64,000 nucleotides of DNA from Novakomyces olei. Taxonomy: Eukaryota. Each line of letters opens with the position of its first letter. The stretch's first letter is position 1. The notes beneath the pieces were generated by a model. That model was given only the letters and a program-made list of their open reading frames with translations, had not been told where the DNA came from and made no database searches. Below, piece after piece: positions 22,293 to 42,306 of the stretch. The translations under genes and the position numbers were made by a program. Location of the stretch: positions 930,001 through 994,000 of the forward strand of contig JADEYG010000007.1 in assembly GCA_016906335.1 (NCBI GenBank), read 5' to 3'.

Positions 22293-22991
22293 TTACCCGC
22301 TGCGAGACTGCATGTAATCCCAAACGGCCCGTTCATACGGTGGTGACGGCCCTCGTGCTGTTTCCTTTACCGGTGGAGCGACTTTTCTTGCTGCGGCAAA
22401 TGCATCCATCAGCCGCCGGCACTCTGCGTTAGCAGCCCGCATGGACTTTAGCCTGTCTTGCTGAGCTTCCAACTGTGCCGTCATTAGCATGACAAGTGTC
22501 TCACGCGTCTGGTGTGGGCGATATTGATTTAGGAGAAAGTGCATGTTGAGAAACAGTGTCCGCATTCGCGCAATAAGCTCCGGGTAGGGCTGAGGCCGGC
22601 GGGCACTGGCGACGAGTAGTTGCAGGAATATTAATAGGACACTGTGTAGCATAGACTTTAGAGCAACTCCACAGGCTCTTCGCTCTTCCGCAGAGTCGAG
22701 AGCGTACACTGGCGCAAGTTGCTGAATACCGAAATCTTTTAGCTGCGGAGCAGTCTCCTCTACAGGCCACACATTTCCAAAACTCGTGTAAGAGCCTTCA
22801 CGCGGGACCGCAGGCGGAGAGAACTCCTCGGGAAAGTCAGCTGCTGCTTTGCTTCCTTCATCTTTTCGCTCCTTAAACGCAGACCACTTTGCGGTCTCAA
22901 ACTTCTCAGAGTATACAAGCGGCGGACGTGGGAAAGTGGAATTGAGCTGCTCTTGAGGCAGCTGATCTCCCGCGGGTCCCTGCTGCGCCAT
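22293..22991 (-). CDS. med7: Mediator subunit Med7
   Basis: STFPRPP, PPAVP..GSYTSFG and LFLNMHFLLNQYRPHQTRETL. Confidence 0.95.
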   Translation of the reverse strand: MAQQGPAGDQLPQEQLNSTFPRPPLVYSEKFETAKWSAFKERKDEGSKAAADFPEEFSPPAVPREGSYTSFGNVWPVEETAPQLKDFGIQQLAPVYALDSAEERRACGVALKSMLHSVLLIFLQLLVASARRPQPYPELIARMRTLFLNMHFLLNQYRPHQTRETLVMLMTAQLEAQQDRLKSMRAANAECRRLMDAFAAARKVAPPVKETARGPSPPYERAVWDYMQSRSG

Positions 22992-23059
22992 TGCTTGCGC
23001 TGCTCGCTACCATTGATCCAAGAGAGGATTGCCGATTGTTCAATAATCGATACTGCCCA

Positions 23060-23460
23060 TATAAATATAAATATAAATATAAATATAAATATAAATATAA
23101 ATATAAATATAAATATAAATATAAATATAAATATAAATATAAATATAAATATAAATATAAATATAAATATAAATATAAATATAAATATAAATATAAATAT
23201 AAATATAAATATAAATATAAATATAAATATAAATATAAATATAAATATAAATATAAATATAAATATAAATATAAATATAAATATAAATATAAATATAAAT
23301 ATAAATATAAATATAAATATAAATATAAATATAAATATAAATATAAATATAAATATAAATATAAATATAAATATAAATATAAATATAAATATAAATATAA
23401 ATATAAATATAAATATAAATATAAATATAAATATAAATATAAATATAAATATAATATAAA
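23060..23460. repeat. Perfect hexanucleotide microsatellite (ATAAAT)~65
   Basis: Fills most of the divergent med7/cap1 intergenic region. Confidence 0.99.
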
Positions 23461-25569: not shown

Positions 25570-25641
25570 GTTGGCTTAGCTCAGGGGTAGAGCGTGGGAT
25601 TGCAGATCCTGATGTCGCGTGTTCGAATCACGCAGTCAACT
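25570..25641 (+). tRNA. tRNA-Cys(GCA), intronless
   Basis: Cloverleaf: acceptor GTTGGCT/AGTCAAC, D-stem GCTC/GAGC, anticodon loop TTGCAGA, T-arm GCGTG-TTCGAAT-CACGC, discriminator U, followed by an oligo-T terminator. Confidence 0.95.
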
Positions 25642-37221: not shown

Positions 37222-38679
37222 TTAAAGTACTCGTTCAACTCTAAGAGCCTCTACCAATGCGCAAACAGTCTCGTCTGAAACCCCGTACTCGTGCTCAGCA
37301 GCAGGAAACTGCCGCCCTTTAACCTCGCGCACATAATCAGCGATAGCCGAATGCTGAAGAGCGCCAATGCGGGCAAACTGCTTTGAAAATTTAGGTACAA
37401 ATCGATCATAAACCCCGAGCATATCGTTCTGCACAAGCACTTGGCCCGCGCAGTCGCCACCGGCTCCAATACCAATAAACGGCAGTGGCACATTCGCAGT
37501 GAGCAGTTTAGCAATACGCGCTGGTACCGCTTCTACCACGGCCGCAAACACGCCTGCTTCCAGAAGCGCCCGAGCATCTTGCACTAGGGATTTGGCCTGT
37601 TTTGTCAGTATGCGAAGACAGGCTGGAATATAAACGAGAACAAATAGCACTTGACAAGAGATAGCAATCAAACTTAAACAAGCCCTAGCAAATACAGAAT
37701 AAATGAAAAGACGTTTATAAATAATAAATAATAAATAATAAATAATAAATAATAAATAATAATAAATAATAAATAATAAATAATATATTAATAACCAAAA
37801 TCAAACTGGCAAACCAAAAGACTAGACCAAACTTACAGCACCGACAGTCTTGCCCTGGACACGAAACCCGCCGATGGTATGAGAGTGCTGGGGCAAAAGA
37901 CCAATGTGCCCCATAACAGGGATACCCGCATTGACCAGAGTCTGAACAGTCTCTGCACGAGCACGGCCTCCTTCTAACTTTACTGCGTCCACTGGAGCCT
38001 GCTGCATTATTTGAACAGCAGAGGCCAGAGCCTGTGCCGGTGAGGATTCATACGAGCCAAAAGGCAGGTCGACCACAATCATGGCTGCACCATGAGCTCG
38101 AGCACGGCACACCGCCTTTGCATGGTGAATCATGTCCCCCAGCGTAACATGCATAGTAGTGTCGTAGCCCAGGGCAACCATCCCCAGCGAATCGCCTACA
38201 AGGACGAGATCCACGCCGGCTCTCTGTGCGTACAGTCCCGACGGATAGTCGTGGGCAGTCAGGCAGGCAACAGGCTCACCCGATCTGAACATACGGTCGA
38301 TATCCCGCACAGTTCGCCGCCGGAGAGGCTGCTTGTTGCCATAGGGCGAAGCCAGCGTCTCGTCAGGCAGCTTGCTTGCCTGAGCGTCTACCGCTCTTGT
38401 CCCAAGGTCGGGACCTTGGGCGGCCACTGCCGAGTCTGCTGCGGAGTCTGCTGCAGCCGGTTTGGCTAGAGGTGAATAGAATCGGGCTCCAGTCACCGAG
38501 GGATCATGTAGTGCCGCGCCAGCGACTTGCAGACTGCCGCTGTACGTATCTGCCGTCCGCTTGCTGGCACAGCAAATCCGTCGTGTTTGAGCCGTAAAAG
38601 GCGGCAGCTTTTGGCTTGCGTAAGCGCTCTGCCGAACGCGGCTCGCTGCCGCTATTGCCGAGCGTGATGGCCGCGCCAT
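37222..38679 (-). CDS. ecm31: Ketopantoate hydroxymethyltransferase (PanB), mitochondrial, 2 exons
   Basis: LTAHD, LVGDSLGM, DLPFGSYE, VKLEGG, VMGHIGLLPQ and IGIGAG..CAGQVLV. The intron contains (TTTATTA)n. Confidence 0.96.
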
Positions 38680-38800: not shown

Positions 38801-38859
38801 TTAGGGTTAGTAAATAAATGTCAGGTTTAGGAAAGTAACCCTAACCCTAACCCTAACCA
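38801..38859. promoter_or_regulatory. Telo-box (TTAGGG/CCCTAA) cluster in the divergent ecm31/gid8 promoter
   Basis: TTAGGGTTAG at 38801 and TAACCCTAACCCTAACCCTAACC at 38837. Confidence 0.6.
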
Positions 38860-39067
38860 TCGCCTTGGAGGATTTTGGCTTTTGCTATAACGCGATTACT
38901 GTAAACTAGCTGTGTCAAATAATATCATTAATATCATTGATATTATAACCAATTAAAAAGGCAAATATACTAGCAATTTTCTGGAGAAATGTAATCCTAT
39001 ACATTAACGTAAAAAACCCTAAATCAACTATAAAAGATCCAAAATTTCACAGGAAAGGCCATAGCCC

Positions 39068-40287
39068 ATGGCAGAATCGCGATATTCGCGAACTGCCCAC
39101 GGTGTACTGGTCTCTTCCGGTTCAGGTACACAGTTTTCCTCTATGTCTGGTCTTCGCGGCTCTCCGGCGGCAGAGAACGGCTCTGCTGAAGCAAGCACCG
39201 GCACCGGCACCGCAGTTACTGCCGGAACTACTATTGGAGCCGCAGAGTGGAATACCCTACTGGACCATGTCTCCATTGCTAAAAGGTCTTTGCCTTTTCA
39301 TTTTTGTTATTTTTCTATGGCTTAATGGATGCGATATGGCTACGCGGTGATGTTAAAAACAAGCAATGGGAATCTCTCTGAATCTGCCAATGCAGACGAG
39401 TGTTGACAAAGCTTAGGACACCTCTGAGTGTGGTCTTTTCAATGTTCCATCTTGATTTCGTATTGCCTTTTCTAACTTTTACTAGTGATCTCAACGCGGT
39501 TGTTCTCAACTTTTTGATAGTCGAGGGCTATGAGGCGGCAGCCCGGGAGTTTGCCAAGGAAACTGGCCTCGCTGTGCCCGTGTCTATGGCCTGCATTGAA
39601 GAACGCATGGCTATACGTGCAGCCATTCTAGGTGGCCGAATTGACACTGCAATCGAGCTGATTAACGATTTTAACCCTGAAGTAAGCCTTTTTAATTTAA
39701 TTTAATTTTATTCTGTTTAGTCGTGTTTGGCAATGATGATCTCGGTATCATGCACCACTCTCAGCACACCTTGTGCATTGAGGAGAGCAATTCACCTTTA
39801 AATATCTCGAGCCGTAAAACACGATTTTTAAATAATTATTATGTGTATTTCTCTTGCTAACGTTCAGCTACTGGATACAAACAGCACATTGTATTTCCAA
39901 TTGCTTCGGCTGCAGCTTATTGAACTCATACGCAAGACGCTTACAAACGGCAATGAGTTGAATGATGTTACCCCCTGCCTAGATTTTGCCATGAAAAACC
40001 TTGCAACTCGGGCTCCGTCAGAGCCTGGATTCCTGCAAGATCTCGAACAGACTATGGCATTGCTATGCTTCCCGCCGGATGCCATTGCCCCCCAGCTGGT
40101 TCATTTACTGCAACCTGATCTGAGGCGCGTAGTAGCTAATGAGGTCAATGCGACCCTCCTAATGTCGCTTGGCGAACGGGACGAATCTGCCCTAAAGGGA
40201 CTCGTCCAGCTTTGGGATTGGGGTGAGCGACGTTTGCGAGAGGAAAAGGTTGAATTTCCGGGATTACGGCTTTGTGGGGATGGTTGA
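39068..40287 (+). CDS. gid8: GID/CTLH E3 ligase subunit Gid8 (LisH-CTLH-CRA), 3 exons
   Basis: DLNAVVLNFLIVEGY..AA..FAKE, IR.AI..G.ID.AIE.IN and LYFQLLRLQLIELIR. Introns at 39286-39485 and 39682-39868. Confidence 0.93.
39342..39432 (+). ncRNA. Intronic box C/D snoRNA, double guide (U79-type and U58-type)
   Basis: Box C GTGATGT at 39347, guide TGGGAATCTC then D' CTGA at 39378, C' TGTTGA, guide CTTAGGACACCT then D CTGA at 39424. Terminal stem GGCTACGC/GTGTGGTC. Confidence 0.88.
39728..39815 (+). ncRNA. Intronic box C/D snoRNA, snR40/U32A-type (18S Gm)
   Basis: Box C ATGATGA at 39733, guide CATGCACCAC then variant D' CTCA, C' TGAGGA, variant D TCGA. Flanking stem TCGTGTTT-GGC / GCC...AAACACGA. 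Confidence 0.7.
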
Positions 40288-42092: not shown

Positions 42093-42306
42093 TGTTGAAA
42101 AGTTTTTGAGCGGCTACATTTAAGCAGCGGCTCAATACAAGTGAAACATTTCGTTAAAGTTCAGGGTGCAGCAGTGAAAGGATAGAGACGCTAGTGGTTA
42201 TGTTGAGTGGCAAGCTATTAATCAAGACTAGCCTCTGCTTACGCTACTACATACAATATACCATTTAAACCCTAAAATATCTATAAAACCCTAACTAATC
42301 CTAACC

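Follow-up and report, generated by a model that had tools for sequence, protein, structure and literature searches.

A GID8-like gene with predicted snoRNAs in both introns

The window analyzed here is the 64,000-nucleotide stretch at positions 930,001 to 994,000 of Novakomyces olei contig JADEYG010000007.1. On its forward strand lies a three-exon gene (39068..40287; exons 39068-39285, 39486-39681, and 39868-40287) that encodes a 277-aa GID8-like protein with LisH and CTLH/CRA regions. Exons 2 and 3 match the corresponding Pfam models (LisH, 3.8e-08; CTLH/CRA, 5.6e-23), and a language-model look-up places the nearest protein clusters of the host gene in the Ascomycota. A small protein that contains only LisH, CTLH, and CRA regions, as does this product of 277 aa, is what we take to be GID8/TWA1; the name is based on this architecture rather than on an orthology test. 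This LisH and CTLH/CRA protein is a non-ribosomal host, as had been proposed in an earlier note made by a model from the sequence without database searches. The divergent upstream neighbor of GID8 is a ketopantoate hydroxymethyltransferase gene. The promoter region of GID8 contains a TTAGGG and three tandem CCCTAA repeats (38801..38856, no strand assigned), with one more CCCTAA at 39017, and these repeats may represent a Tbf1-type element.

Intron 1 (39286..39485, + strand, 200 nt) begins with the donor GTCTTT and ends with a canonical branch site, CTAAC (39472-39476), and a canonical TAG acceptor. Read-through of the donor leads to a stop after 85 codons, so this intron must be spliced for GID8 to be made. 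A box C/D snoRNA is predicted within the intron at 39338..39435 (+ strand, 98 nt including the terminal stem), leaving 52 nt of intron on the donor side and 50 nt on the acceptor side. The donor distance fits the 41-60 nt from the 5′ splice site that a section of PMC2780460 describes as typical for intronic snoRNAs of N. crassa. A 7-nt repeat, GGTCTTT, which is found at the donor and again just past the snoRNA, was rejected as likely chance.

A second intronic C/D snoRNA is predicted in GID8 intron 2 (39682-39867). This RNA (39728..39814, + strand) has the C box AUGAUGA (39733-39739), a guide, AUCAUGCACCACU (39747..39759, + strand), that is followed by the D′ box CUCA, and the D box UCGA. Its Rfam matches, to snoZ221_snoR21b (23.5 bits), SNORD103, and Me18S-Gm1358, are all sub-threshold, and it is also present in intron 2 of GID8 homologues. 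DNA contigs that cover the locus, derived from the likely source run and from one further study, are identical to the window and show no variation.

Anatomy of the intron-1 RNA

From 5′ to 3′, the intron-1 RNA is laid out as GGCUACGC-G-GUGAUGU...AUGGGAAUCUCU-CUGA-A-UCUGC-CAAU-GCAGA-CGA-GUGUUGA-CAAAG-CUUAGGACACCU-CUGA-GUGUGGUC, with all features on the + strand. In both the MFE and the centroid folds, the 5′ arm GGCUACGC (39338..39345) pairs with the 3′ arm GUGUGGUC (39428..39435) to form a terminal stem of 8 bp, three of which are G·U. The C box, GUGAUGU (39347..39353), agrees with the consensus at six of seven positions and carries a U at position 7. The U79-type D′ guide (39367..39377) consists of UGGGAAUCUC (39367-39376) and a 1-nt spacer, which separates it from a canonical CUGA D′ box (39378..39381). 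Next is a hairpin (39383..39396) in which UCUGC (39383-39387) forms five base pairs with GCAGA (39392-39396). The U58-type D guide, CUUAGGACACCU (39412..39423), directly abuts the CUGA D box (39424..39427). The 39338-39435 segment therewith carries the C box, D box, and terminal stem by which a box C/D RNA is generally recognized. The C, D′, and D boxes, the 8-bp stem, and the TCTGC/GCAGA hairpin are all located where the earlier note had placed them, as judged from the coordinates and the fold.

The C′ box that the note had described is present as a motif, but its identity is ambiguous, as two degenerate candidates are observed between the D′ box and the D guide. The first, UGCAGA (39391..39396), overlaps the 3′ arm of the hairpin and has the ancestral spacing that is seen in orthologues. 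The second, GUGUUGA (39400..39406, with UGUUGA at 39401-39406), lines up with the SNORD58 model's own C box in a sub-threshold match of 13.3 bits and was probably the motif chosen by the earlier reader.

The overall fold of the RNA is no more stable than those of shuffled sequences (z = −0.65). Since C/D snoRNAs are defined by their boxes rather than by stable helices, this value is expected. The two 16-mers that are formed by a guide and its box each occur once in the 64-kb window, where approximately 0.00 to 0.01 occurrences would be expected with up to two mismatches allowed.

Both guides are complementary to conserved LSU rRNA segments

To evaluate the guides, target segments were taken from eukaryotic LSU rDNA fragments that belong to eukaryotes other than this species. 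These fragments (L001-L011) were retrieved from prokaryote assemblies with a pattern made up of the two target words and a gap, and all score as LSU_rRNA_eukarya (398-1067 bits). Among the matches listed, all 11 carry both target segments, as the pattern itself demanded, and the one base that the pattern left free is a G in 11 of 11. The fragments read AACGAGATTCCCACTGTCCC, followed approximately 310-330 nt later by CGCAGGTGTCCTAAG or CACAGGTGTCCTAAG, and both target words are also contained in the Rfam LSU_rRNA_eukarya consensus.

On one of these fragments (L007), the D′ guide forms 10 contiguous Watson-Crick pairs that start 1 nt from the box (−18.1 kcal/mol), and only 4 of 1000 shuffled guides do as well. 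In this duplex, guide position 5 lies opposite the A of GAG-A-UUCCCA, within the segment GAGAUUCCCA. The D guide forms 12 contiguous Watson-Crick pairs on the same fragment that start at the box (−21.1 kcal/mol), which is matched by 0 of 1000 shuffled guides, and its position 5 lies opposite the G of AGGU-G-UCCUAAG, within the segment AGGUGUCCUAAG. On the rRNA of other eukaryotes, both guides therefore provide at least 10 nt of antisense next to a D or D′ box, with a known 2′-O-methylation site at position 5.

By their sequence context, the predicted targets appear to be the positions of human 28S Am3809 and Gm4198, which are methylated to 100% and 92%, respectively (PMC6182160). This placement is in line with four further human sites: the offsets of Am3804, Cm3820, Um4197, and m6A4190 (sites from PMC6182160, with the mapping derived here) fall on A, C, U, and A of the retrieved LSU sequences. 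In the portion of PMC8393311 that concerns this site, SNORD58 is paired with 28S-Gm4198, and a part of PMC8053127 assigns Arabidopsis 25S A2327 to SnoR44 and U2651/G2652 to SnoR10. For N. crassa, Table 1 of PMC2780460 gives an intronic 75-nt RNA, Nc CD14, as the guide for 26S-Am2288, with a 10/0 D′ match. The same table lists U79 of Arabidopsis and human as homologues of Nc CD14 and none for S. cerevisiae or S. pombe, and it contains no U58 counterpart.

Comparison with Rfam families

At gathering thresholds, the only Rfam match in the window is a tRNA. A scan of the whole window at E ≤ 1 recovered neither the intron-1 nor the intron-2 snoRNA, which indicates that the SNORD79 model fits poorly here. 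In a permissive regional scan, SNORD79 (RF00152; gathering score 47 bits) is matched by the 5′ part of the intron-1 RNA at 22.9 bits, and SNORD58 (RF00151; gathering score 42 bits) by the 3′ part at 13.3 bits, with an E-value of 1.9 on 106 bases. Neither score reaches its threshold, but the guides themselves are identical to the family consensus sequences: 16 nt of D′ guide and box, AUGGGAAUCUCUCUGA, agree with SNORD79 letter for letter, and the 12-nt D guide CUUAGGACACCU is the SNORD58 consensus guide. The assignments made in the earlier note, a U79-type guide for the A of GAG-A-UU and a U58-type guide for the G of GGU-G-UCC, agree with these identities and with the 10 and 12 pairs formed on L007.

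The similarity to SNORD79 extends to the target A and to an intron-encoded origin. The likeness to SNORD58, and to Arabidopsis SnoR10, lies in the predicted target G (human Gm4198, Arabidopsis G2652) and, for SNORD58, in the shared 12-nt antisense element. The placement differs, however. The SNORD58 consensus has this element behind the C box, as the 5′ (D′) guide of a short RNA with a single guide, whereas in the window RNA, which is 98 nt long, it occupies the 3′ (D) guide position. From the guide position and the score, the intron-1 RNA is not a member of SNORD58, although it is U58-like at the D guide.

The U79-type part is conserved in GID8 intron 1 of other fungi

To identify relatives, metagenome contigs were searched with a pattern in which a C box precedes the U79-type guide and its D′ box. 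The homologues therefore share an identical D′ guide because the pattern required it, whereas the differences in their 3′ regions were not imposed. The search yielded at least 124 stretches, which come from 120 loci and comprise 131 matches and 106 distinct sequences. In a local tblastn with the window GID8 protein, 29 of the 120 listed loci match, always on the strand of the snoRNA, and this number is a lower bound, since many loci have only 300 nt of flank. The LisH exon, which starts SD(I/L)N, lies 81-119 nt past the D′ box in 28 of these 29 loci (104 nt in the window), and in the remaining one only exon 3 was matched. The homologous proteins are 34-53% identical to that of the window, which indicates distant fungi. 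Some tblastn rows also contain GID8 similarity upstream of SD(L/I)N; this similarity was rejected as a run-on into the intron, because one such row contains a stop.

The exon boundaries and the RNA itself are likewise comparable. Exon 1 ends with AA(A/G)AG|GT in most homologues and with AAAAG|GT in the window, and the SD(L/I)N start of exon 2 is conserved in the homologues. The arms of the terminal stem vary yet stay complementary (GGCAA/TTGCC, GCATAT/ATATGC, AACAT/ATGTT, and GGCAAG/CTTGCC). A profile of 19 GID8-hosted homologues has a single match in the window, at 39348-39397 (E 7.5e-08, a rough E-value), which covers positions 8-54 of the 87-position model and thus runs from the C box as far as the homologues' C′ box. 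The orthologous C′ box, AUGUAGAG or AUGCGGAG, is aligned opposite AUGCAGAC in the window. The presence of a U79-type snoRNA before the LisH exon in 29 of the 120 listed loci indicates that both the host gene and the intron are conserved, and by this comparison the intron-1 RNA is an orthologue of the U79-type snoRNA carried in GID8 intron 1 of many fungi. In a literature search, supplementary host-gene tables aside, no paper that links GID8 to a snoRNA was found.

These results also bear on whether an RNA gene is present at all. If short motifs had come together by chance in this AT-rich intron, sub-threshold Rfam matches and a fold z-score that is not significant would be unsurprising, but chance is difficult to reconcile with the rarity of either 16-mer in the window, with the profile match, and with the occurrence of this RNA at the corresponding position of the GID8 gene in 29 other loci. 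Such a coincidence is considered extremely improbable.

A different concern is that the intron-1 sequence could be a decaying or poorly expressed copy, in which a snoRNA-like sequence is kept and the RNA no longer accumulates because of defects in the donor or in the C and C′ boxes. The donor does stand out. Among 16 homologous donors, GTAAGN is found 10 times, GTACGY three times, and GTATGT, GTAGGT, and GTCGGT once each, and two other introns inspected in the window have the donors GTAAGC and GTAAGT. The window donor, GTCTTT, is aberrant beside these, in agreement with the weak donor reported in the earlier note, where a coupling of snoRNA release to GID8 splicing was conjectured from it, and it could be a limit on snoRNA production. 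The U at position 7 of the C box and the degenerate C′ motifs point in the same direction, but position 7 is also variable in orthologues, being C or U in L037, L038, L039, L068, L074, and L090. In addition, the D′ guide, both CUGA boxes, and the 8-bp stem are intact, the branch site and acceptor of the intron are canonical, and splicing of intron 1 is still required for GID8. Decay or poor expression is accordingly regarded as improbable, and a stable C/D snoRNA is very likely to be produced from this intron.

The 3′ third of the RNA and the U58-type guide

In contrast to the 5′ two-thirds, the 3′ third of the window RNA has no alignment to the homologue profile. None of the 131 listed U79-type copies contains the U58-type guide within two mismatches, so that the 3′ third is lineage-specific. 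The exact two-guide pattern (U79 guide, gap, U58 guide) was likewise found zero times in viral contigs and zero times in metagenome contigs. Of the element that the earlier note suggested looking for in gid8 introns of related fungi, the listed GID8 loci contain the U79-type snoRNA and not the U58-type guide.

The sequence that precedes the D box falls into several unrelated types when 20 distinct homologues hosted by GID8 are compared. The commonest type contains 7-10 nt that are complementary to the rRNA segment GAUUAACGAGAU, which lies beside the D′ target and overlaps it. The register of this complementarity varies and places position 5 between 5 and 8 nt to the upstream side of the A, which looks more like accessory pairing than a fixed methylation guide. 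Among the GID8-hosted homologues compared, only the window RNA has a full-length D guide in perfect register.

Separate U58-type snoRNAs, in which the guide follows the C box as it does in the SNORD58 consensus, were found at four loci (L086 and L033/L067/L071). They are located 0.36-1.4 kb upstream of a U79-type snoRNA, and none is in a GID8 locus. In L086, the U58-type copy is shifted by one base and would target the neighboring U.

Two origins of the 3′ third are equally compatible with the data. Capture of half of a U58-type gene is possible, given the resemblance between GUGUUGAC-AAAG-guide-CUGA in the window and GUGAUGAC-UUU-guide in the SNORD58 consensus, and given that the window sequence follows an ancestral-looking C′ box. 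Alternatively, an existing 27-nt spacer could have changed stepwise. The view that two guides residing on separate vertebrate RNAs have been fused here therefore holds insofar as the RNA is a double guide; fusion is one possible origin, and only the 3′ third is new.

The U58-type D guide has no comparative support of its own, given its absence from all 131 listed copies, and it could be young or inactive. It may therefore be asked whether the RNA is a genuine snoRNA with a single guide, in which only the U79-type D′ guide directs methylation and the 3′ antisense element is inactive or aids docking on pre-rRNA. Conservation restricted to the 5′ two-thirds would agree with this, as would the single D′ target that is listed for Nc CD14 in Table 1 of PMC2780460. 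The 3′ regions of the orthologues are either unrelated or have short complementarity in a register of −5 to −8, which suits accessory pairing, and the idea of extra pairing has been put forward in a part of PMC3116282. The D guide, on the other hand, forms 12 of 12 possible Watson-Crick pairs starting from a canonical D box, places a known Gm site at position 5, and is not equaled by any of 1000 shuffled guides. No part of the RNA is better formed than the terminal C/D motif that would serve this guide, and the target G is methylated in both humans and Arabidopsis. A single active guide is thus judged unlikely, if the least unlikely of the alternatives weighed here. An active D guide is somewhat favored, and activity of the D′ guide is expected with good confidence.

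Discussion

The intron-1 RNA is probably an orthologous U79-type snoRNA in GID8 intron 1 that also carries an active U58-type D guide. If it is processed like other intronic snoRNAs, splicing of the GID8 pre-mRNA and debranching of the intron 1 lariat would be followed by exonucleolytic trimming of the intron back to a snoRNP that assembles on the C/D kink-turn and the terminal stem. The D′ guide would then pair with GAGAUUCCCA of 25S rRNA and direct 2′-O-methylation of an A, the counterpart of human A3809, Arabidopsis A2327, and N. crassa A2288. Pairing of the D guide with AGGUGUCCUAAG would direct methylation of a G, the counterpart of human G4198 and Arabidopsis G2652. In this scheme, the 5′ two-thirds of the RNA, which begins with the C box and ends with the ancestral C′ box, is inherited, and the last third with the U58-type guide is lineage-specific and replaces the differing 3′ regions of the orthologues.

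The closest published fungal counterpart is Nc CD14, which, as described in Table 1 of PMC2780460, is the U79 counterpart of N. crassa and is intron-encoded like the window RNA. At 98 nt, the window RNA exceeds in length both Nc CD14 (75 nt) and 18 of the 19 profile orthologues (79-92 nt), and it has a 12-nt second guide, in contrast to the one target listed for Nc CD14 in that table and to the lack of a U58-type guide in the listed U79-type copies (131 of 131). Arabidopsis SnoR44, as presented in a part of PMC8053127, is a double guide for the same A site (25S A2327). Its partner guide, however, is of the U74/snR64 type and serves a C site (C2338) rather than the U58-type G site, which indicates that U79-type guides are combined with different partners in different kingdoms.

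Well-documented fungal cases exist in which guides are re-assorted between single- and double-guide snoRNAs: N. crassa CD5 combines the functions of snR72 and snR78 (PMC2780460, in part), and a ‘lineage-specific target’ class of fungal C/D snoRNAs was delineated by Canzler et al. 2018 (PMC5824354, in part). The RNA described here resembles these re-assorted double guides in that one guide is conserved and the other provides what is elsewhere the function of a separate snoRNA. In the available text of PMC2780460 and PMC5824354, supplementary tables aside, a pairing of U79-type and U58-type guides is not mentioned. Similarly, a search for papers on U58 and U79 snoRNAs in fungi, supplementary target tables aside, found none, and a paper on ncRNAs of A. 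fumigatus mentions neither U58 nor U79. A paper on snR107 deals with another site.

A broader reading would join these observations, and as a whole it is considered rather unlikely. In this reading, GID8 would be an ancient and conserved double snoRNA host in ascomycetes, with a U79-type snoRNA in intron 1 and a guide for the 18S GAGUGG-UGCAUG site in intron 2. The intron-1 snoRNA would have captured the C-box-plus-guide half of a U58-type snoRNA, with the tandem UGCAGA/GUGUUGA motifs as the scar, and an ancient Gm site near 28S m6A4190 and Um4197 would have moved to a new carrier. The donor GTCTTT would, in addition, make GID8 output depend on the snoRNA-bearing intron.

The more limited reading preferred here, of an inherited U79-type snoRNA with an added U58-type guide, concerns an ordinary kind of gene and would hold no surprise for a snoRNA specialist. 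It would add two unannotated snoRNA genes to the genome, both of which are missed at Rfam thresholds. The intron-1 RNA would be a natural example of a C/D snoRNA in which one guide is fixed together with the host intron and the other position has been turned to another ancient methylation site. The reading also predicts that this fungus methylates two 25S rRNA positions that are methylated in animals and plants. Finally, the conserved presence of two predicted ribosome-biogenesis RNAs within a gene of the GID/CTLH ubiquitin ligase may offer a small lead on co-regulation.

Noncoding RNA matches in the window and rRNA references

At Rfam gathering thresholds, the sole match in the window is a tRNA gene on the plus strand (25570-25641, 60.7 bits). 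A RUF3-like match on the minus strand (22937-23123) scores 40.5 bits where the gathering threshold is 80 (E value 0.15), and is probably a compositional artefact. The intron of the minus-strand ketopantoate hydroxymethyltransferase gene (37695-37795) is filled with a long (TTATT)n-like microsatellite. The eukaryotic LSU rDNA fragments used as the rRNA target reference (L001-L011) are small pieces of 375-940 nt that come from publicly available assemblies and MAGs of bacteria, where they are evidently contamination.

Variation among the U79-type snoRNAs

In many GID8-hosted U79-type snoRNAs, the region preceding the D box is complementary to the rRNA segment GAUUAACGAGAU, which adjoins and overlaps the D' target of these RNAs. 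This complementarity is observed in the 3' part of the snoRNA at metagenome loci L019, L020, L025, L035, L054, L055, L073, L077, L085 and L129, and its register relative to the D box varies from locus to locus. The pattern resembles accessory pairing; alternatively, it may represent a second guide that is drifting, close to the equivalent of human Am3804. At other loci, a separate U58-type C/D snoRNA is present, at about 1620-1725 of the reverse complement of L086 and at about 600-715 of L033/L067/L071. These RNAs lie on the same strand as the U79-type snoRNAs and 0.36-1.4 kb upstream of them; therefore, the U58- and U79-type guides are cluster neighbours in at least two other lineages. A search of the same contigs for GID8 gave no match.

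Upstream repeats and a second snoRNA in GID8

The 390-bp gap between GID8 and the divergent pantoate gene contains TTAGGG and three tandem CCCTAA repeats (38801-38856) and a further CCCTAA at 39017, which places these motifs 50-270 nt before the GID8 start codon. The motif is one recognized by Tbf1, and the repeats may be Tbf1-type promoter elements. Such elements are known from snoRNA and ribosomal-protein genes of some ascomycetes (PMC4138321). Similar repeat pairs occur elsewhere in the window (21283/21289, 40314/40321, 42270-42305 and 55617/55623), and the motif is missing at nearly all of the homologous loci listed.

Intron 2 of GID8 (39682-39867) contains a second C/D snoRNA on the plus strand (39728-39814), with the C box AUGAUGA, the guide AUCAUGCACCACU, and odd D' (CUCA) and D (UCGA) boxes. 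Its Rfam matches, to snoZ221_snoR21b (23.5 bits), SNORD103 and Me18S-Gm1358, are all sub-threshold. This RNA is predicted to act on the GAGUGG-UGCAUG site of 18S rRNA, which is of the snR40/U32 type. The same snoRNA is found in intron 2 of GID8 homologues at no fewer than 13 metagenome loci, with D' boxes (CATA, CTTA, CCGA and CTGA) as degenerate as that in the window. Because the intron-2 snoRNA recurs at this position, GID8 is a conserved host of two snoRNAs.
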